From: a bacterium
GTDB lineage: Bacteria; SZUA-182; DTGQ01
Direction: 5' to 3'
Length of the DNA: 41,705 nucleotides
Assembly (NCBI GenBank): GCA_040752695.1
Contig: JBFMGO010000041.1
Location: forward strand, 1 to 41,705
The position numbers were made by a program, and so were the translations under genes. How positions within the stretch are numbered: position 1 is the first letter of the stretch; the number at the start of each line of letters is the position of its first letter. A model generated the notes under the pieces. It was not told where the DNA came from and searched no databases. It saw only the letters and a list, made by a program, of their open reading frames with translations. Shown here in pieces: positions 10,358 to 41,705 of this stretch.

Positions 10358-11737
10358 ATGTGGAAGCAAGGAGAAAAATGGGTAGTTGTCTTGAGCCTTG
10401 GAATTGTTCTTTCGCTTTTTTGGGTAATTGGTATTCGAAATACAGCACAAGCCAAATGGATCGATTGGGTATCTTTAGGCGGAGAAATGCAAGGCGATCC
10501 AGTGGCAATTTCTTTGTGGGAAAATCATGTTACTGTTTTCGCAGTAGGTATGGATAACGCTTTGTGGTGTAAAACATGGATGAATGATGCCTGGACCGAT
10601 TCGGAATCTCTCGGGGGTCAGATTGCTGGAACACCAGCCGTTGTTTCCTGGGGTCAGAATCATTGCTCTGTATTTGCAAGGGGTATCGATGGTGCCTTGT
10701 GGGTTAAGACAATACTTGATGGATCCTGGCGCGATTGGGTATCTTTAGGCGGAGAAATGCAAGGCGATCCAGTGGCAATTTCATTGTGGGAAAATCATAT
10801 TTCGGTATGCGCACGGGCTATGGATAATTCCTTGTGGTGCAGGGTATGGCAAAATGATGTTTTGTCCAATTGGGAACCTTTAGGGGGCAAAATTCTAGGA
10901 TCTCCATCTGCTATTTCTTTGTGGGAAAATCATATTACGGTATTCGCACGGGCTGTGGATAATGCCTTGTGGTGCAGGACGTGGCTTAATGATGTTTTGT
11001 CGGACTGGGAACCTCTGGGGGGTGAAATTCAAGGAACTCCAAGAGTTGTTTCTTGGGGACCGGATCATGCTTCTGTAGTGGCAAGAGGTATGGATAATGC
11101 TGTGTGGATTAAGACTTGGGTCGCAGATGTTCCGTGTTTACAGGATGATTCAGGTAACCTGGATATCGAAGAACATGAGGGAAGGATAGGTGATGAAATT
11201 GTGATTCCGGTAAGGATTCAAAGCGCCCCTGATAATGTGGCTACTCTTGGCTTTGAAGTTACCTATGATGCAAATGTTCTTGAATATATAGATTTTTACT
11301 TTGAGGAAAATAATCTGGCAACATCTTTGCAGTTTTTTGATGTTAATAAAATTGGTGATTCCGCCCGACTGATTATTGGAGGGTATACTGATGAAGCAGG
11401 TATTATAAAAGATGAAAGTGGCATTTTGGTAAACCTGAGGTTTAGAGTGATAGGTGGTGAGAAAGGCTGCTGTTATCCCTTGCAATTGGAAAATTTAAAA
11501 GATAACATAGCTCGTTTCACAAAAACAGACGGATCATTTACCATAATAGAGTGTAATGGAGACATGAATGAGGATGGTGCTATTACACCGGAGGATGCCC
11601 GGATAGTTTTCGAATGCTATCTTCAAAAAGGACCTTATACGGATTGTTGCGATGTAAACAGAGATGGAGAAGTCACGCCGGCCGATGCTCTTTGTGTTTT
11701 TCAAAAGTATTTAGGTAAGGATTCCTGTTTGGACTAG
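10358..11737 (+). CDS. Secreted protein: five 45-aa PLL/fucose-lectin-like beta-propeller repeats + cohesin + dockerin
   Basis: Signal peptide ending AQA; repeats of W-x-x-LGG...P...FARGxDNALW; cohesin-like GDEIVIPVRI...GFEVTYDANVLEY; paired Ca-loops GDMNEDGAITPED and DVNRDGEVTPAD. Confidence 0.85.
   Translation: MWKQGEKWVVVLSLGIVLSLFWVIGIRNTAQAKWIDWVSLGGEMQGDPVAISLWENHVTVFAVGMDNALWCKTWMNDAWTDSESLGGQIAGTPAVVSWGQNHCSVFARGIDGALWVKTILDGSWRDWVSLGGEMQGDPVAISLWENHISVCARAMDNSLWCRVWQNDVLSNWEPLGGKILGSPSAISLWENHITVFARAVDNALWCRTWLNDVLSDWEPLGGEIQGTPRVVSWGPDHASVVARGMDNAVWIKTWVADVPCLQDDSGNLDIEEHEGRIGDEIVIPVRIQSAPDNVATLGFEVTYDANVLEYIDFYFEENNLATSLQFFDVNKIGDSARLIIGGYTDEAGIIKDESGILVNLRFRVIGGEKGCCYPLQLENLKDNIARFTKTDGSFTIIECNGDMNEDGAITPEDARIVFECYLQKGPYTDCCDVNRDGEVTPADALCVFQKYLGKDSCLD
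10462..10798 (+). repeat. Intragenic repeat: 67-bp near-identical copies 270 bp apart
   Basis: 10462-10528 vs 10732-10798 differ at one position; part of a 135-bp period repeat array. Confidence 0.9.
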
Positions 11738-33941: not shown

Positions 33942-34613
33942 TTAAGGAATGGATTGAACGGATTTTATGACTACCGGTGTAACCGGAACATCTCTATTGA
34001 ACCCTTTTGTCGCCGTCGGTACTTTGCCGATTTTGGTAACTACGTCCATCCCCTCGATTACTTTTCCGAAAACACAGTAACCGAATCCCTGATCCGTTTC
34101 ATCTTTATGATCGAGAAACAGATTGTCGCGCAAATTGATAAAAAACTGGGAAGTAGCGCTGTCGACAACGGATGTTCTGGCCATGGCAACCGTTCCGGCC
34201 GTGTTGCTGATCTTGTTGGTGGCTTCGTTTTTAACCGCGGCTTTGGTTGGCTTTTGGGTCATGTCCTGGGTAAATCCGCCTCCTTGAATTACGAAATCAG
34301 GCACGACACGGTGAAATATTGTCCCATCGTAAAATTTTTCCTTTACATAGCTCATAAAATTTTTTACTGTAAGAGGTGCATTCTTTTCGAAAAGTTCAAT
34401 TTTTATCGTGCCCATCGAAGTTTCAATGAGAACTACAGGATTTTTTGCCTTTTGGGTTTCTGCTGCTTTGTCGTCTGTTTTCTGGATAGTCACCTGATCA
34501 CCTTTCGATTTTTCATTTTCATGTTTTGTCTGGGCATGGCTTGAACCGATAAAAATGCCCGTAGAAAAAAGGGAATACGCCGCCATAAGGAAAATCATCC
34601 GTTTAAAAATCAT
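33942..34613 (-). CDS. ppiA: Exported cyclophilin-type peptidyl-prolyl isomerase (PpiA-like)
   Basis: Signal peptide ending SHA; FYDGTIFHRVV.FVIQGGG, AMART, SATSQFFIN, GYCVFGKV. Confidence 0.93.
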   Translation of the reverse strand: MIFKRMIFLMAAYSLFSTGIFIGSSHAQTKHENEKSKGDQVTIQKTDDKAAETQKAKNPVVLIETSMGTIKIELFEKNAPLTVKNFMSYVKEKFYDGTIFHRVVPDFVIQGGGFTQDMTQKPTKAAVKNEATNKISNTAGTVAMARTSVVDSATSQFFINLRDNLFLDHKDETDQGFGYCVFGKVIEGMDVVTKIGKVPTATKGFNRDVPVTPVVIKSVQSIP

Positions 34614-34682: not shown

Positions 34683-34711
34683 ATTATATTAACAGAAAAA
34701 AGCATTGTCAA
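34683..34711 (-). promoter_or_regulatory. Consensus sigma70 promoter of ppiA
   Basis: Minus strand TTGACA-17 nt-TATAAT, a perfect consensus. Confidence 0.85.
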
Positions 34712-34785: not shown

Positions 34786-34815
34786 TTGACAGGGCTCACG
34801 GTTTTTCACTATAGT
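34786..34815 (+). promoter_or_regulatory. Sigma70 promoter upstream of the ECF-CHAT operon
   Basis: TTGACA-18 nt-TATAGT, divergent from the ppiA promoter. Confidence 0.65.
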
Positions 34816-34969: not shown

Positions 34970-35590
34970 ATGGACACCATATTGCAAGATGGAGAGATCA
35001 CCAATTTTTTGGAGGCCTGTATCAACCGGGATGAATGTGCCTGGGACGAATTCATTGCCAAGTATAGCAAACTGATATACAATTATATTATTAAAACGCT
35101 CAAGAGGTATAATTTTCAATTTCAATCGGATGAATTGGAGGAAATCTACAACCGGATTTTTACAGCCCTGCTCGAAAATGATTGTCGCCGGCTGCAAAAC
35201 TTTCGCGGGACGACCGAAAAGTCATTTACCGCTTATCTTCGGGAGATTTGCTTTCACAATACCGTGGATTTTCTCCGTGAGAAAAGGTTTTTTCTGGACA
35301 TCGAGGATGTTCCGGAAAGTTCGTCCACGGACTCGGGTTTTGATAATCTTGAGTTGAGGCAACTCCAAAATATCATAGGGGAATTAAAAAAAGAGCTGAA
35401 TCCCCGGCATCAGCTTTTTTTTAAGCTCATTTTCGAAGAAGAACTCAGTTCTGATGAGGTTGGGAGGATTATGAATCTGAAGCTGAATGCCATTCATCAG
35501 TTAAAGTTCCGTCTGGTTAACAAGCTTATTCAGATTGCCAAGGAAAAAAATTTATACAATGACTTGGAAACATTCATAAGGGATTTTTAG
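34970..35590 (+). CDS. ECF-type sigma-70 factor
   Basis: Region 2 AWDEFIAKYSKLIY...SFTAYLREI..NTVDFLR; region 4 LNPRHQLFFKL...LSSDEVGRIMNL...KFRL. Confidence 0.9.
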   Translation: MDTILQDGEITNFLEACINRDECAWDEFIAKYSKLIYNYIIKTLKRYNFQFQSDELEEIYNRIFTALLENDCRRLQNFRGTTEKSFTAYLREICFHNTVDFLREKRFFLDIEDVPESSSTDSGFDNLELRQLQNIIGELKKELNPRHQLFFKLIFEEELSSDEVGRIMNLKLNAIHQLKFRLVNKLIQIAKEKNLYNDLETFIRDF

Positions 35591-35650
35591 ATTAATCGTC
35601 TATCTGGTTGATATTAACATTAAAGGAGTCCACCTGATAAGGAGTGAGTC

Positions 35651-36364
35651 ATGGAAAGAGATGTTGAGAAGTTAGCTGAGATGCTGGATAGTATCTCTCT
35701 CCCTCGCAAGAGGGGAGATATGCCCCGCCGTACTCCTGATTGTTTGACTGAAGAGAGGTTAGAAGCATATTACCAGGGGACCTTACCAAAACCGGAAGGA
35801 ATGGAAATTGGCAATCATCTTTCGAATTGCCAGTATTGTTTCGATAGACTGATCATTCTCGATGAATTAATGGCCGGTGAACACGTTGAGGTACCCAGGA
35901 GGCTCATGGCAGGAGCCAGACAGACGATTTTTGGCAGTTCCAATCGAGTTCTGGAAATTGTGCTGAGCATTACCCAAAAAGCAATCAGGATTATTAAAAA
36001 CACGGGAGAGCTGCTGACTCCGGAACCGGTTCTGCAGCCCGCACGCGGACAAGAGGACAAGGTCGGTCATGGCCAATTGTCCGATTTCCTTATAATTTCC
36101 AAGGAGTTTCAAGATCTGAAGATGGATGTTCAGATCGAATGTGTTAATGATTCCTATAAGGTTATCCTGAACGCTTCAGATCCCCACAACGGAACCCCTC
36201 TGTCGGGAGCCCGTCTGGCTCTTTTTTCCGGAGGCAGGGAACTGAGTTCCATTGAGGATAGTGAGGCTATTTTTTACCTGAAGTTACGCAAATATCTCAT
36301 CAAGGTCCTCTTCGAGGAAAGAGAAATGGGTGAGATCAGGCTGGACCTGAGGAAGGCATCATAA
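35651..36364 (+). CDS. zf-HC2 (ZAS) anti-sigma factor-like protein, soluble, with a C-terminal beta-rich domain
   Basis: CLTEERLEAYYQG...HLSNCQYC (HxxxCxxC); directly follows the ECF gene; no TM helix seen. Confidence 0.8.
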   Translation: MERDVEKLAEMLDSISLPRKRGDMPRRTPDCLTEERLEAYYQGTLPKPEGMEIGNHLSNCQYCFDRLIILDELMAGEHVEVPRRLMAGARQTIFGSSNRVLEIVLSITQKAIRIIKNTGELLTPEPVLQPARGQEDKVGHGQLSDFLIISKEFQDLKMDVQIECVNDSYKVILNASDPHNGTPLSGARLALFSGGRELSSIEDSEAIFYLKLRKYLIKVLFEEREMGEIRLDLRKAS

Positions 36365-36454
36365 TCGAAAGGGCAAGAAGTTAAGCAAAAATTGTTCTTT
36401 AGAGGAAGGCATCATAATCGAGAGGACAAAAATTTAAGCAAAAATTGTTCCTTA
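36349..36454. repeat. 53-bp tandem duplication spanning the anti-sigma stop codon
   Basis: 36349-36401 vs 36402-36454, 48/53 identical (GAGGAAGGCATCATAATCGA...TTAAGCAAAAATTGTTC). Confidence 0.9.
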
Positions 36455-36476
36455 AGTGTAAGATGGGAAGCGGGCG

Positions 36477-38708
36477 ATGAGAGAAGCGCTTTATTTGGAA
36501 ATTTCTAGAAAACACGACAATCTGGAGATCAGTCTCAGTGAAGGCGAGCAGACTTTAACTCACTATGAGGAGTTAAAGGTCTCGATCCAGGATCTACAGC
36601 GCAGATGCAGCGAGCTTCTCCACCTTCTGAATGCAGTCTCCCGGCAGGGAAAAATTCCCGGAAAAATCCTCCACGAGCTCCAGCAGATGGGTCAGGTTTT
36701 ATATAATGAAATCTTTCCGGTCAGCATCAAAAGAGAGCTCATCAATACTTCCCTGGAAGATATTATCCTTAAAATAGACAATCGATTGGTCCAGGTTCCA
36801 TGGGAGTTGATATATACAGGAAAAGAGTTCTTTTGCGAGCGGTTTAACATTGGCCGCATGGTCAAAACCCAGCAAACCATTTCCAGTGGAATCAAGAAAG
36901 AACTCCTTCCTCCGCTTAATATGCTCATCATTACCGATCCTAAGGGGGATTTGCCCTCCGCCTATGAGGAAGGAAACCGCATCAGGGAGAGCCTCAGGCA
37001 AAACGATGTAAACATTACCCTGGTCAGCTCCGAAGTAAGTGTTGACTACCTGAAGAAAAAACTGCTTCAGTTCGATCTCATTCACTATGCGGGCCACGCG
37101 GATTATAACCTGGAAGATCCTTCGACCAGCGGATGGATATTGGAGGATGGAAAGTTTACGGCTCTGGACATCCGGAAGCTTTCCGGTGTAAATCCCCTTC
37201 CCGGACTGGTTTTCTCCAATGCCTGTCAATCAGGTACAACCGAGGAGTGGCAAAAAGAAGCAACGGAAGAAGAGAAAATCTATGGGTTGGCGAATGCATT
37301 TCTCCTTTCCGGAGTCCAGCATTATGTAGGTACTTTCTGGAAAGTTCTGGATAAGCCAAGCACGAGCTTTGCCATTGAATTTTACCGGATGCTCTTTGAC
37401 GGTCAAAGTATCGGCCAGGCCATGAGGTCAGCACGGCTGGCTCTTAAAGAGCACTATGGCCAGGAAAATATCCTCTGGGCCAGCTACCTGTTGTATGGCG
37501 ATCCTACAGCCAGGTATTTTGAGTCCCGACAGCAGGAAAAAGTACTGCCCGTTGATCTTCACTCCCAATCAATCCCCCATCCTTCCGTCTCCGCCCGTTC
37601 CCAATGGAATCCAGCAACCGAATGGCTCATTCAGGAAAAGAGCCGGGGGGGCGGACTGCTCTGGAAAACCCGTGACCCATCGGAGTTAATGGAACGAAGC
37701 TGGCAAGCGGAGCAGGAATACCAGGGAAGCGGCGAGGAAAGGACCAAAAGAAAAAATACACAAGACAGATCCCGCCTGTGGTATGCCGCGGCTATCGCGG
37801 GAGCGGTAGCTGCAACCTGCACGGTCTTTTCCCTTATGAACGGAAACAGGCAAAAGCAGGTATCCCGGTCTCACCGGCCGAAGTCCCTGATCACTGAGCT
37901 GCCCGCGATCAAGGCTACCGGCCCCGGTCAGTTTTGGGACAATGGCTGGGCGGATGAAACCTCTTTAAGTGAATTTTTCCAAGGAATATTAAAAAAATAC
38001 CATCAGCAGCAAAGGAATAAGGAAGCAGCAGACACCTGGACCTCTCGTCCACTGACTATCTTTTTTTCTCCTGGAAAAGAAAACGACGATGCAAGGACAG
38101 CCATTTTGATCAATAAAATGATCTCCCGACTGCAGAAAGACCCGCGCATCACGATCTTAGAGCGTGACACGTTAGAGACCATCCTGCAGGAGCTGGCTTT
38201 ATCGAGTTCAAATCTGGCCGATCCCGAGTCTGCCCTGCGTTTGGGAGAGCTGCTATCAGGCAATCTTTTCAGTGTTTGTCGGCTCTATCGGGTCGATTCG
38301 GAACTTCAGATTACCATGCGCATTGTCGAGAACGAGAGCTCGATCGTGAAAACCGCTCTCAGTGAAGTCTGGAAAAGTGGCGTATCAGCAGATGACATGG
38401 CCGACCGTTTGTGCCGTGAAATGATAGAATCTCTGAATGAGCATTTCCCCTTGCAGGGTAAAATTAAATCTATCGTCAACTATGATAAGGTTATTTTGAA
38501 TATCGGAGCCAGACAGGGACTGAAATCGGGAACAAAACTCACGGTCATTAAAGATCAACAACTCTATCAGAACGGTGAGATTATTGGCGAAGAAAGCGGC
38601 AAAAAAGTAGGCGAGGTCGAGGTTTCCGAGATAAGAGCAGGTTATAGTTATGCAAAAGTCCTGGGGAGGTCCGAAGACCTCGCACCCGGTATGAAAGTGG
38701 TTCCTTAA
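36477..38708 (+). CDS. CHAT (caspase-like) protease with TM helix and periplasmic CsgG-like + FlgT-C-like domains
   Basis: VPWELI, IHYAGHA (catalytic His), FSNACQS (catalytic Cys), GLANAFL, WASYLLYGDP; hydrophobic LWYAAAIAGAVAATCTVFSLM; ILERDTLETILQEL...ALRLGELL; VILNIGARQGLKSG. Confidence 0.88.
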   Translation: MREALYLEISRKHDNLEISLSEGEQTLTHYEELKVSIQDLQRRCSELLHLLNAVSRQGKIPGKILHELQQMGQVLYNEIFPVSIKRELINTSLEDIILKIDNRLVQVPWELIYTGKEFFCERFNIGRMVKTQQTISSGIKKELLPPLNMLIITDPKGDLPSAYEEGNRIRESLRQNDVNITLVSSEVSVDYLKKKLLQFDLIHYAGHADYNLEDPSTSGWILEDGKFTALDIRKLSGVNPLPGLVFSNACQSGTTEEWQKEATEEEKIYGLANAFLLSGVQHYVGTFWKVLDKPSTSFAIEFYRMLFDGQSIGQAMRSARLALKEHYGQENILWASYLLYGDPTARYFESRQQEKVLPVDLHSQSIPHPSVSARSQWNPATEWLIQEKSRGGGLLWKTRDPSELMERSWQAEQEYQGSGEERTKRKNTQDRSRLWYAAAIAGAVAATCTVFSLMNGNRQKQVSRSHRPKSLITELPAIKATGPGQFWDNGWADETSLSEFFQGILKKYHQQQRNKEAADTWTSRPLTIFFSPGKENDDARTAILINKMISRLQKDPRITILERDTLETILQELALSSSNLADPESALRLGELLSGNLFSVCRLYRVDSELQITMRIVENESSIVKTALSEVWKSGVSADDMADRLCREMIESLNEHFPLQGKIKSIVNYDKVILNIGARQGLKSGTKLTVIKDQQLYQNGEIIGEESGKKVGEVEVSEIRAGYSYAKVLGRSEDLAPGMKVVP

Positions 38709-38744
38709 CCCCTTGATTAACCAAAGATCGAAAAATGCAAAACA

Positions 38745-40832
38745 ATGAATACGCAAGACAGGTTTACATCGTGCTTCAAAATAATACTCAGGACTATCGT
38801 CCTTATTTGCTTAATCCTTCCGCTTGGATGCGCAGTCAGGACCGGTCCGATCCTTGTCAAAGATGGGAAGAAATATGGGCGCATTGAAGGTATCTGGGGC
38901 GGAAATTTCTGGAACTTCTACGAGCGGGGTCTCTCCTACGCCGAGGGAGAATTCTGGCCATTAGCCATCACCGATTTTCAGCAGGCGGTGCGCTTAAAGG
39001 GCCGCGACCAGCGGCGAATACGCACGTATGGTCTTCATATTCTCGATGATTATTTCCCCCATCGGGAAATGGGTATTGCCTATTATTTCAGTCAGGATTA
39101 TCAAAAGGCTATTCAAGAGCTTTCCATATCTTTAGAATGTTATCCTTCCGCCAAGGCTAAATATTATATGAATCGTGCACGTGAGGCATCTTTACGCCTG
39201 AGCAGGCACGATACCGCTTCGCCTGTGGTCCTTATTACCTCTCATCGGGACCATCAGGTAGTAGGGGGCTTTGAAGCCACCATTGAAGGCACGGCAGAGG
39301 ATGATTATTTCGTGGAGAAAATCGCCATTAACGGAGTACCTTTCCTCTGCGAACTTTCACAGAAAAATATGCCCTTCAAAACCATCGTGGCCCTTCAGCA
39401 GGGAAGCAACGAAATTCGGGTTGCGGCCAGGGATCTTTTAGGAAAAGAATCAGTAAAGATTCTTCATCTTTTGGCCGACCGACAGGCCCCTGTGCTCTCC
39501 ATAGATGATCTATCCATCATCCAAAAGAGCGGCAACGAAGGGCAAAAGGGCAGCGAGAGGCAAAAAGACAGTCATGAGCAGTTCCTTTCGAGGGAAATCC
39601 ACCTTGAAGGGTATGTGGATGATCTGTGTGGTGTCAAGACCTTTCAGATCGAACACCAACCGGTTGCGCTTGAGACTGAAAAAGGGGGCAGATTTCATTT
39701 CAATACTCTTCTCCCTGAGTCCCTTGAAGCGCTCGCTTTTGTGGCTGAAGACCAGGCAGGCAACCGGGTGGAAGGGCAGATCAAGCTGAAGGATTTTCTA
39801 TCGGCACATTCATCGTCCAGCCGACTGCTCCAGGTTGCCTCGTTGCGTATGGCCGGGCTGGCTGCACAAAACAACGACACGCAGCCGCCAACCCTCAGGA
39901 TCGATACTCCAAAAGGGGATCTGACCGTGGAGTGGGAGACCCTGTTTATTTCCGGAGAGGTCCAGGACGCCGGAGGCATTCGTGACCTTTTGATCGATGA
40001 CGAATCGATCCTGCCGAGGGAAGGGAGGATGATCTATTTTAATCACCTTCTGAAACTTAAGGAAGGGAAAAATTCCATTATCATTAAAGCCATAGATACG
40101 GCTGGAAATGAAAAGATAAAAACGATCGAAGTAGAGCGCACCGTTCATCCGGTCCGCCAGATTGCCTCCCGGATGAGCGTGGCCATCTGTCCTTTAAGCT
40201 ACAGGGGTGAAGACAACCAGAAGCGGGGACTTATGACTGACCTTTTGACGAATGCTTTTGAAAAGCAGGAGCGGTTCCTTATGGTGGACCGGCAGCGAAT
40301 CGACCGGATCGTGCGCCAGTTGGAAGAACAAGGGGATACTGACTTTTCTCCCCAGGAGGTGGGAAAACTGGTTTCCGCTGAATCGGTTCTGGCCGGCCGT
40401 ATTTATGAAGATAAGGGATTTGTGGAGATTGTGGCCCGGCTTGTTGACACCGAAACCTCCGTAATCCTGGATTCCGAGGATGTTTATGGCGAAGGTGGCT
40501 TAAGGAGTATCAGAATCCTACTCAATGGATTGGCCCTGAAGTTCAAGCAAAGCTTCCCTCTGGTGGAAGGGGAAATTATGGAAAAAGATGGCCGGAATAT
40601 ACTCGTTGACATCGGCAGAGAAAAAAATATCAAGGAATACACCAAATTTATCATCTTTAGAGAGGGCAAAAGCAGTAATGACCCTATAACCCAAAAGATA
40701 TTGGAATTCAACCCCTATGTGCTGGGAGAAGCCAAAATCTTGAAGGTCTTCGATCAATTTTCCGAAGCGGGCCTTATTTCGAAGGAACAGCAGGAGAGTG
40801 TTCGTATTAAGGATCACGTAATCACCAAATGA
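38745..40832 (+). CDS. Lipoprotein with TPR, Ig-like repeats and CsgG-like + FlgT-C-like domains
   Basis: Lipobox-like LPLGC; TPR helices (YERGLSYAE, HREMGIAYYF...AI.EL); D-x-x-P-x-(L/V)-x-I...D.AGN Ig repeats; FLMVDRQRIDRI...VGKLVSAE; ILVDIGRE. Confidence 0.75.
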   Translation: MNTQDRFTSCFKIILRTIVLICLILPLGCAVRTGPILVKDGKKYGRIEGIWGGNFWNFYERGLSYAEGEFWPLAITDFQQAVRLKGRDQRRIRTYGLHILDDYFPHREMGIAYYFSQDYQKAIQELSISLECYPSAKAKYYMNRAREASLRLSRHDTASPVVLITSHRDHQVVGGFEATIEGTAEDDYFVEKIAINGVPFLCELSQKNMPFKTIVALQQGSNEIRVAARDLLGKESVKILHLLADRQAPVLSIDDLSIIQKSGNEGQKGSERQKDSHEQFLSREIHLEGYVDDLCGVKTFQIEHQPVALETEKGGRFHFNTLLPESLEALAFVAEDQAGNRVEGQIKLKDFLSAHSSSSRLLQVASLRMAGLAAQNNDTQPPTLRIDTPKGDLTVEWETLFISGEVQDAGGIRDLLIDDESILPREGRMIYFNHLLKLKEGKNSIIIKAIDTAGNEKIKTIEVERTVHPVRQIASRMSVAICPLSYRGEDNQKRGLMTDLLTNAFEKQERFLMVDRQRIDRIVRQLEEQGDTDFSPQEVGKLVSAESVLAGRIYEDKGFVEIVARLVDTETSVILDSEDVYGEGGLRSIRILLNGLALKFKQSFPLVEGEIMEKDGRNILVDIGREKNIKEYTKFIIFREGKSSNDPITQKILEFNPYVLGEAKILKVFDQFSEAGLISKEQQESVRIKDHVITK

Positions 40833-40841
40833 GGAAGGAAA

Positions 40842-41705
40842 ATGGCTATAAGGGCAATGGAAAAAAAGAAGCTGATTACCTGGTGTACAGCCTGGCTCAT
40901 GTTTGGAATCGTATTGTTGTATTATGCACCTGCCTGTTCCCAGGACCCCATGCCAACCTCGCCTCCGGTCCCGGTAGGTTCAGGGGCCAGGGCACAGGGA
41001 ATGGGAGGAGCCTTCATTGCCGTAGCAGACGATGCCACTGCGGCGTCATGGAATCCGGGAGGACTCGGACAATTGCAGAAGCCGGAAATGTCGTTGGTAC
41101 TGAGCGGGTTTTCCCGTAATGAAGATTATGATAGCTCTCAGAAAGATGACACGAGGTCCTCTACTTCATCATCCGATCTTAATTATTTAAGTTACGCATA
41201 TGCCAGAAATATCTGGCGGAGAAATTTCTTTATCTCTCTCAATTATCAGAAATTGTTTGACTTTAGCCGAAAGGTGAAGTTCACTGAGACCTACCCTTCT
41301 GATGAATTAATCAGTGCCTATACGGTAAAGTATGATTTTCAGCAAGATGGTTCCCTCTATGCCTTTTCGCCAGCCCTATCGGTAGAGGTTGTACCTGGTT
41401 TTTATGCCGGCTTGGCTTACAACACCTGGTCTGAGCAGATTACCGGCAGAGGCCATTGGGAAGGCCGGAAACGATACACATCGGAAATGGATATGTTAGG
41501 TACACATTATACGCTTATTGGTGATTTTAAAACAAGGTACAAAGTCTCGCAGGGGGAAAATCTGACCTTGGGGTTCCTGTGGAAAATCACCCAACAGCTT
41601 CAGGTGGGCGGAGTTTATAAAACACCTTTCAGAGCCAAAGTAAAAGCTGTGTGTCAGGGGTTTGTTATGGATACCATGGATCCTGATCCGAACGGAACAA
41701 TTCCA
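40842..41705 (+). CDS. FadL/OmpP1-like outer-membrane beta-barrel (5' part; continues beyond the window)
   Basis: Not in the ORF track. Manual translation from ATG 40842 gives MAIRAMEKKKLITW...signal...PVGSGARAQGMGGAFIAVADDATAASWNPGGLGQL, the GxxA.GMGGA...D.TA..WNPAGL hatch motif of FadL/PorV-type barrels. Confidence 0.85.
   Translation, partial: MAIRAMEKKKLITWCTAWLMFGIVLLYYAPACSQDPMPTSPPVPVGSGARAQGMGGAFIAVADDATAASWNPGGLGQLQKPEMSLVLSGFSRNEDYDSSQKDDTRSSTSSSDLNYLSYAYARNIWRRNFFISLNYQKLFDFSRKVKFTETYPSDELISAYTVKYDFQQDGSLYAFSPALSVEVVPGFYAGLAYNTWSEQITGRGHWEGRKRYTSEMDMLGTHYTLIGDFKTRYKVSQGENLTLGFLWKITQQLQVGGVYKTPFRAKVKAVCQGFVMDTMDPDPNGTIP

Follow-up and report, generated by a model that had tools for sequence, protein, structure and literature searches.

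Sigma factors of the extracytoplasmic function (ECF) group are a major route of envelope sensing in bacteria, and we know of few ways in which they are released: the site-1/site-2 protease cascade, partner switching, phosphorylation, redox sensing and, lately, CRISPR-linked proteases. Here we describe a five-gene module from a bacterium of the GTDB lineage SZUA-182, located at positions 34,970 to 41,705 of a 41,705-base stretch of DNA (assembly GCA_040752695.1, contig JBFMGO010000041.1) that is one whole contig and is called the window below. The genes encode an ECF-type sigma factor, a soluble zinc-type anti-sigma factor, a protein in which a CHAT protease domain is followed by a single transmembrane (TM) helix and a FlgT-like periplasmic domain, an exported lipoprotein and a FadL/PorV-like outer-membrane barrel. 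The module is real, conserved and undescribed, and it varies the theme of protease-gated ECF signalling: a caspase-like protease anchored in the membrane probably senses the envelope and frees the sigma factor by cutting its soluble inhibitor. If true, the known release routes would be joined by a caspase-fold protease that sits at the cytoplasmic side of the inner membrane and is coupled to the outer one, and bacterial CHAT domains would gain a concrete substrate that is free of CRISPR.

All five open reading frames (ORFs) lie on the + strand at the 3′ end of the window, with gaps of 60, 112, 36 and 9 bp between them. A preliminary description of this DNA had proposed such tight, co-directional packing, together with an ECF sigma factor, a soluble HxxxCxxC anti-sigma factor and a CHAT protease that carries an intact His and Cys dyad (Cys codon 37224-37226) and is followed by one TM helix, and all of these were found again. 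In the mechanism that we propose, the lipoprotein, with its TPR, immunoglobulin (Ig)-like and FlgT-like domains, and the barrel would make up the outer part of an envelope-to-sigma relay. The 743-aa CHAT protein would be the transducer, passing the inner membrane once between a periplasmic FlgT-like domain and a cytoplasmic protease domain. The anti-sigma factor would hold the sigma factor until an envelope cue, relayed through the periplasmic domains, led the CHAT protease to cut a loop of the anti-sigma factor at a P-[IVA]-R-[GS] motif (R132/G133), which would part the sigma-binding domain from a C-terminal beta-sandwich and set the sigma factor free. Taken whole, from envelope relay through cutting at R132/G133 to sigma release, this scheme seems to us evenly balanced between right and wrong; that the five genes act as a single signalling unit in which the CHAT protein lies upstream of the sigma factor is somewhat likelier.

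Conservation was assessed in a phylum sample of 20 genomes, from which 40 stretches around CHAT matches were taken and their ORFs mapped by searches from the window proteins. A full-length CHAT orthologue is present in 12 of the 13 genomes of the taxonomic order, the thirteenth genome being 63% complete. The gene order sigma, anti-sigma, CHAT, lipoprotein is kept in 12 of 12 orthologous loci and the barrel is present in 11, the twelfth locus stopping at a contig edge. Since the flanking genes are shared too, the orthologous loci are weak evidence by themselves, and the paralogous cassettes are the stronger evidence. The 43 CHAT ORFs comprise the 12 orthologues, 22 short CHAT-TM paralogues, eight long forms (937-1097 aa) and one unrelated soluble CHAT-AAA protein. 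The short paralogues lie in other genomic contexts, one of them in the same genome as the window (C112:1897-8202). The anti-sigma gene is directly upstream on the same strand in 16, elsewhere in the cluster in four and lost to a contig cut in two; several of these paralogues are orthologous to each other, so the independent cases number fewer than 22. In 9 of 27 cassettes the stop of the anti-sigma gene overlaps the start of CHAT or is at most 4 nt away from it (ORF starts being approximate), and the gap between the two genes is 21-113 bp in the orthologues. Across 17 cassettes the pairwise distances of sigma factor, anti-sigma factor, CHAT protein and lipoprotein correlate with r 0.87-0.96, a level reached in 0 of 999 permutations, which shows that the cassettes were copied and inherited as units; this bears on co-inheritance only and is no evidence of contact.

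The gene set also holds together beyond the sampled genomes. Metagenome contigs were scanned with a CHAT alignment, and the best 80 of 422 confirmed matches were taken, 53 of which were informative in having at least 1.6 kb upstream of CHAT. Sigma and anti-sigma genes lie directly upstream of CHAT in 39 of these 53 loci, namely in 6 of 6 without and 33 of 47 with a cyclase domain fused to CHAT. The gene orders are often barrel-lipoprotein-sigma-anti-sigma-CHAT or sigma-anti-sigma-CHAT-barrel-lipoprotein, and survival of the set through such rearrangement is good evidence of one functional unit. The survey of gene neighbourhoods that had been suggested earlier thus finds the association kept in 12 of 13 genomes of the order, in paralogous cassettes and in permuted metagenome loci. 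A scan of genome contigs with the single CHAT protein gave just two close relatives. One relative of the same family is labelled Pseudomonadota; the depositors' source names for relatives (for example ‘Desulfobacterales bacterium’) are unreliable.

The CHAT protein (743 aa, 36477..38708, +) scores 129.3 bits against PF12770 (cut-off 24) over residues 70-342 and, with its His/Cys dyad, belongs to the CHAT family. His207 of HYAGH (residues 203-207; His codon 37095..37097) and Cys250 of NAC (37224..37226) are invariant in 43 of 43 CHAT genes, where the motifs read H-x-A-G-H and N-A-C, and likewise in 26 of 26; their catalytic roles are putative, assigned from the CHAT/caspase fold. Hydrophobicity places the TM helix at residues 436-454 (37782..37838). 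With the threshold applied, a single such helix comes after CHAT in 40 of 41 family members, and no member has an N-terminal signal peptide. The long relatives (937-1097 aa in the phylum) carry a class III nucleotide cyclase N-terminal to CHAT-TM-FlgT. In the long form of the same genome (G000:C27:425-3673) the cyclase spans 47-204, CHAT 334-608 and the TM helix 701-719; other long forms are L065-L071, and very many cyclase-CHAT proteins of about 1050 aa occur among the sequence matches. Because a cyclase requires cytoplasmic nucleotides, its position N-terminal to CHAT puts the CHAT side in the cytoplasm, and on this sequence evidence the CHAT domain is read as cytoplasmic with its catalytic dyad intact. 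In one cassette a 908-aa VIT/VWA protein (L093:13571-16297) is inserted between the anti-sigma and CHAT genes.

Beyond the membrane the protein continues as a two-domain module (37848..38705), with an alpha/beta part like those of CsgG, LpoB and the TolB N-domain and a FlgT_C beta-barrel, modelled at a predicted local distance difference test (pLDDT) score of 84 and a predicted template modelling (pTM) score of 0.75. Foldseek matches this model to FlgT (3w1e, E 3e-11) and to the LPHT ring of the flagellum (8z5n, E 2.7e-10); TolB N-domain, GNA1162, LpoB, CsgG and PelC match more weakly, CsgG only at rank 32 (E 2.9e-3). FlgT_C reaches 27.0 bits, exactly its cut-off of 27, over residues 671-728. 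CsgG (PF03783) stays below its cut-off of 20.8 in both the CHAT protein (13.5 bits) and the lipoprotein (20.2 bits), and the LpoB model is below cut-off as well. The CsgG identity given in the preliminary description is therefore dropped in favour of the term FlgT-like, which describes the fold best; the flagellar context is absent here, no flagellar gene being present in the window, and we do not claim membership of a flagellar family. The C-terminus of the lipoprotein (40155-40829) is homologous to the same module (profile-profile probability 99.8%, E 5.4e-28, 202 columns), and this kinship with part of an exported protein speaks for the periplasmic side. Several structural relatives of the module are parts of periplasmic rings. 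Analogy suggests a hetero-oligomer of periplasmic FlgT-like domains, and that the module itself would form a ring is a guess on the same footing.

The anti-sigma factor (237 aa, 35651..36364, +) is of the soluble CHCC zinc type. Its H56-x3-C60-x2-C63 motif (35816..35839) is preceded by a candidate fourth ligand, C31 (35741-35743). In 26 anti-sigma sequences C60 and C63 are invariant and H56 and C31 are each present in at least 90%; among 51 metagenome homologues H56, C60 and C63 are kept in all 51 and C31 in 50. The Pfam model zf-HC2 gives 13.7 bits to the window protein, below the cut-off of 22.2, and paralogues pass it (34.6 bits). With H-x3-C-x2-C, an upstream Cys/His and a helical domain the protein has the make-up of a class I zinc anti-sigma (ZAS) factor, and a search of the PDB with the family profile hits RslA, the DdvA N-terminal domain (8rlz, E 1.8e-3), RsiW and ChrR, with E values from 1.6e-3 to 1.2e-2. 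There is no TM segment, the maximal 19-residue hydrophobicity being below threshold in 33 of 33 members from the phylum and in 50 of 51 from metagenomes. As the anti-sigma factor is soluble, an RseP-type intramembrane step is not needed, in line with the independence from RseP that had been anticipated.

The structure model of the anti-sigma factor (pLDDT 78) has four helices within residues 34-97 (34-41, 47-59, 61-75 and 83-97), a hairpin at 100-117 and a confident C-terminal beta-sandwich at 146-235, which we call CarboxypepD_reg-like because the family profile also matches multi-repeat CarboxypepD_reg proteins. A Foldseek comparison of this model with the PDB yielded no match within E 1e-3, only generic Ig-like sandwiches, and the anti-sigma sequence alone gathers 164 representative clusters at E up to 1e-30. 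Residues 127-140 are the sole long low-confidence loop of the model (pLDDT < 50) and are modelled as disordered. This loop holds PARG (residues 130-133, 36038..36049), one form of a conserved motif, P-[IVA]-R-[GS]. Each of the 26 anti-sigma factors has P130 and R132, and in the 51 metagenome homologues, which are independent, the Arg is kept in 50 and the following Gly or Ser in 50, with variable flanks. Judged by its conservation the [IVA]-R-[GS] motif is a candidate site of cleavage by CHAT, and an invariant basic residue in a disordered inter-domain linker has the look expected of a site cut by a clan CD protease. Basic P1 specificity is a property of metacaspases, separase and gingipain R.

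Two unusual arrangements involve the anti-sigma factor. A cluster of the same genome that has no CHAT gene (G000:C17:51105-65641) holds a lipoprotein, a 2386-aa protein and a 1077-aa ORF containing a barrel, with an anti-sigma factor and a 294-aa ORF (a possible sigma factor, unconfirmed by searches) on the opposite strand; this anti-sigma factor has Lys in place of the otherwise invariant Arg. A 411-aa ORF (L073:3880-5115) with an N-terminal zf-HC2 anti-sigma domain and C-terminal sigma2/sigma4 regions sits between the normal sigma and the normal anti-sigma gene of one cassette and may be a fusion or a mis-joined pair.

A complex prediction of CHAT residues 1-400 with the anti-sigma factor scored 0.39, against 0.00 for the best of three controls. 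In the calibration of this test 116 of 157 solved complexes and 2 of 215 mismatched pairs reached the mark, and scores of 0.60 or less covered 18 of the 157 solved complexes and both of the passing mismatches; the alignments were custom-made for this pair, so these counts hold only roughly. The runs agree in at least 77% of contacts, with a partner pLDDT of at least 68. The multimer check that had been proposed thus separates the pair from its controls at a score in the weak class, and the earlier claim that CHAT cleaves the anti-sigma factor draws weak support from this score and from the invariant Arg motif in the disordered loop. The result fits docking equally well as cleavage. The CHAT-TM protein could then be the membrane half of a split anti-sigma factor, docking the soluble anti-sigma/sigma complex at the membrane, perhaps via the beta-sandwich, and then letting this complex go, either through a change of conformation or through a cut in itself or in the sigma factor, not in the loop. 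DdvA offers a parallel in joining a zinc anti-sigma domain, a TM helix and CHAT in one polypeptide, for which self-cleavage is proposed (PMC11506125). The dyad, invariant in 43 of 43, argues for catalysis, and an R-G motif that might serve as a self-cleavage site, sought in the cyclase-CHAT linker of 53 long forms, was found in none; we consider a split anti-sigma factor rather improbable.

The sigma factor (206 aa, 34970..35590, +) scores 60.1 bits against TIGR02937 (cut-off 42.9) over residues 24-188 and 28.4 bits against Sigma70_r4 (cut-off 24.1), and has the sigma2 and sigma4 regions only, which makes it a member of the ECF group. The 5′ side of the gene carries a candidate sigma70-like promoter, TTGACA-18-TATAGT (34786..34815, +; 11 of 12 matches), the -35 and -10 boxes of which are kept in close orthologues, while distant orthologues have an extended -10 box. 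The sigma70 promoter described earlier is present as a site; the region shows no enrichment of sites of this kind (12 against 9.8 +/- 3.0 expected). No ECF-type promoter was found upstream of the sigma gene, where only sigma70-like boxes are conserved, or between the operon genes. This argues that the CHAT protein, the lipoprotein and the barrel are made together with the switch and are not its targets alone, and from its sequence the operon looks constitutively made, as expected for a sensor.

The sigma/anti-sigma pair could, conversely, be only the regulator, with the CHAT protein, lipoprotein and barrel as its regulon, the zinc anti-sigma factor sensing a cytoplasmic cue such as oxidants and CHAT acting on another substrate or on itself. 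Such an arrangement would agree with the observation that genes adjoining ECF pairs are often their targets (PMC7826278), with the CHCC zinc site, which is of the type found in redox-sensing anti-sigma factors, and with the occurrence of intact-dyad CHAT-TM proteins that have no sigma/anti-sigma genes. It is opposed by the type of promoter, by the short gaps between the anti-sigma and CHAT genes and by the complex score, a weak pass; it also leaves the invariant Arg motif in a disordered loop unexplained. We regard it as unlikely.

Several points weigh against the reading that we prefer, in which CHAT cuts the anti-sigma loop and so frees the sigma factor. Complex passes of the class obtained here prove wrong more often than right, save where the guess had good odds from the start, and the test, which reports no contacts, does not place the loop relative to the CHAT active site. 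Arg as the P1 residue of CHAT is suggested only by analogy; Csx29, a published CHAT protease, reportedly cuts after Leu or Met, and the invariant Arg could equally serve as a binding residue. Soluble zinc anti-sigma factors are able to sense signals by themselves. All eight long cyclase forms of the phylum have an intact dyad and no sigma/anti-sigma genes, and 14 of the 47 informative cyclase forms from metagenomes have none directly upstream, so that in those proteins, at least, the protease must have a different substrate or role. The regions upstream of the sigma gene and of the sixth gene described below yielded no ECF target promoter. Lastly, the binding of sigma to anti-sigma factor, the cleavage and its site, the direction of the signal, the cue and the regulon are all things that we infer.

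In the RseA/DegS/RseP and FecA/FecR/FecI systems an outer-membrane protein, a periplasm-spanning transducer and proteolysis of the anti-sigma factor relay an envelope signal to an ECF sigma factor, and such systems may occur in several paralogous copies per genome. The module differs from these routes in having no TonB-dependent transducer, no FecR-type or single-pass anti-sigma factor and no need of a site-2 protease, and in that its protease has a caspase fold and is cytoplasmic. Scans with domain libraries found neither TonB-dependent transducer nor FecR-type domains in the five proteins, which sets the module apart from TonB-dependent cell-surface signalling.

The closest published relative, which the preliminary description did not name, is DdvA/DdvS of Myxococcus xanthus (PMC11506125; PMC6061681). 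There too an ECF sigma factor, DdvS, is under a CHCC-zinc anti-sigma domain linked to a CHAT caspase fold across the inner membrane (PMC11506125; PMC6061681). DdvA, however, is a single polypeptide that has its TPR-CHAT part in the periplasm, the active site there is incomplete, and the final step is proposed to fall to RseP (PMC11506125). In contrast, our module has a separate soluble anti-sigma factor without a TM helix, a CHAT domain that has an intact dyad and precedes the TM helix, on its cytoplasmic side, and a FlgT-like periplasmic part, and it includes a lipoprotein and a barrel; it is thus not a transmembrane anti-sigma factor of the DdvA type.

Craspase (Csx29 TPR-CHAT, Csx30 and CASP-sigma) resembles the module in that the holder of an ECF-like sigma factor is, by proposal or by demonstration, cut by a CHAT protease in the cytoplasm (PMC10028731). 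The module lacks both a CRISPR effector and an RNA trigger, its protease carries no TPR, and its inhibitor is a classical zinc anti-sigma factor, not Csx30. A specific kinship with the type III-E systems invoked earlier finds no support. The sigma factor scores 29.6 bits against NF041236, the model for type III-E CRISPR-associated sigma factors (cut-off 100), and the CHAT profile, run against PDB sequences at E up to 0.01, found neither Csx29 nor the CHAT domain of DdvA and gave one irrelevant match to a designed protein. In CalpL/CalpT/CalpS a soluble protease likewise cuts a soluble anti-sigma factor and frees an ECF-like sigma factor (10.1101/2024.05.08.593097; PMC11417357). CalpL, in contrast, is a Lon-SAVED protease activated by cyclic oligoadenylate, neither caspase-fold nor membrane-bound (10.1101/2024.05.08.593097; PMC11417357), and both this system and Craspase are CRISPR-triggered, unlike the module.

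Caspase-family genes have been noted beside sigma genes before. A 2012 survey describes metacaspase-sigma operons in myxobacteria, with Peptidase_C14, and suggests proteolytic control (PMC3501461), and CHAT genes lie near actinobacterial ECF54, without an anti-sigma factor (PMC8999054); neither source, in its account of these genes, gives the five-part architecture or the mechanism. The main text of the ECF reclassification paper does not contain the term CHAT, and its supplements on group contexts may bear on the question (PMC7826278). A literature search for CHAT or orthocaspase with ECF sigma/anti-sigma factor, CsgG or adenylate cyclase returned no paper on this architecture, in agreement with the statement made at the outset that no characterised system of this kind was known.

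The lipoprotein (695 aa, 38745..40832, +) has a signal peptide, TPR_2, Ig-like domains (Glucodextran_B, 56.1 bits) and weak CsgG/LpoB matches in addition to its FlgT-like C-terminus. Its Cys29 (codon 38829-38831) follows the hydrophobic region and is conserved, and the lipobox is non-canonical in several orthologues. The barrel gene (40842..41705, +) is open at the contig end, where its N-terminal 288 codons are present. The FadL-like identity proposed earlier falls short for this truncated copy, which scores 15.4 bits against Toluene_X (PF03349, cut-off 29.7), and is upheld by a full-length orthologue, which scores 38.9 bits. PorV/PorQ models (NF033709 and NF052325) give 28.0 and 34.2 bits, over the N-terminal 40 residues only, against cut-offs of 90 and 325, so the protein falls outside that family.

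Reading past position 41705, as had been proposed, was possible on another contig of the same genome, C21, which opens (G000:C21:2-490) with the C-terminal part of the barrel, its last approximately 160 codons (about 298-448 of the orthologue). As the window contig ends inside the barrel gene and C21 starts with its remainder, the two almost certainly adjoin one another, separated by some 10-20 codons. The next gene, the sixth, encodes an 896-aa CarboxypepD_reg protein (G000:C21:772-3462) and has its own sigma54-like promoter, GGCA-N-TTGCA (GGCAC/T-N5-TTGCA), in this genome and its relatives, which makes it a separate unit outside the ECF operon transcript. A palindrome (TGCA-N-ATATGCA-like) upstream of this gene is conserved in the genomes of the family. 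The promoter regions are G000:C21:491-771, L054:8292-8567, L055:8055-8432, L056:11246-11537, L057:10558-10848 and L058:11263-11584.

Another reading concerns export. The lipoprotein and barrel could be a device, like a PorV shuttle, for the export or surface anchoring of large neighbouring exported proteins, with the sigma factor, anti-sigma factor and CHAT protein reporting on it or tuning it. Many paralogous cassettes adjoin exported proteins of 1100-3086 aa with LVIVD, Peptidase_C13, BACON or CarboxypepD_reg, the window cassette is itself followed by the CarboxypepD_reg protein, and the barrel gives weak PorV-family matches. These matches are far under the cut-offs (28 against 90 and 34.2 against 325 bits), the downstream gene of the window's orthologue group has a promoter of its own, the partner protein is variable or absent where the five-gene core is constant, and a cytoplasmic protease would be unable to process exported cargo. 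We take an export device to be quite improbable as the function of the module.

Many paralogous cassettes have as neighbours giant exported proteins of 1846-3086 aa that contain LVIVD repeats (L077:1936-9513, L081:8058-13597, L087:2262-9770, L065:13126-19545 and L073:9849-19109). In four of these five a legumain-like domain, Peptidase_C13, is present, and one has NHL, BACON and CarboxypepD_reg domains in addition. Each cassette may watch or serve one giant exported protein. A broader picture can be drawn, tentatively and with some doubt on our part: the family could consist of widespread one-pass receptors in which a FlgT-like module, a matching lipoprotein and a FadL-like barrel switch on a cytoplasmic CHAT protease, often fused to a cyclase, that cuts a zinc anti-sigma factor after an invariant Arg. 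CHAT would then be the sole, RseP-independent protease of the ECF pathway, and each genome would hold many parallel channels, each watching a different giant surface protein. The family is large, with 422 metagenome matches, 164 anti-sigma clusters and several copies per genome, and may for that reason be a main sensory system of poorly known anaerobic lineages.

The remaining 29 ORFs of the window are ordinary chromosome. They include YicC, guanylate kinase, CoaBC, a two-component cluster, Rnf subunits, glycolytic genes, Obg, RNase G, polyamine genes, LpxC, PyrF, topoisomerase I, DprA and cyclophilin; no cas gene and no mobile-element gene is among them, and Rfam and tRNA scans of the window gave no match. 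This setting bears on a role in defence, which the preliminary description had entertained, and so on an anti-phage or conflict system with CHAT as a death effector as in CRISPR type III-E. CHAT proteases do act in type III-E defence (PMC10028731), and DdvA/DdvS controls a defence island (PMC11506125). Against this stand the housekeeping neighbourhood, the lack of any match at E < 5e-4 between PADLOC models and the five proteins, and the presence of several cassettes per genome (with at most nine CHAT matches in each), many of them beside giant exported proteins, which links them to the envelope. Defence finds no support here; we reject it as very improbable.

Two further features of the window lie outside the module. 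A 459-aa protein with DUF346 repeats and cohesin and dockerin domains is encoded at 10358-11737, amid housekeeping genes. A perfect sigma70 consensus, TTGACA-17-TATAAT (12 of 12 matches), lies on the - strand at 34683-34711 and is directed away from the operon, toward the cyclophilin gene at 33942-34613.

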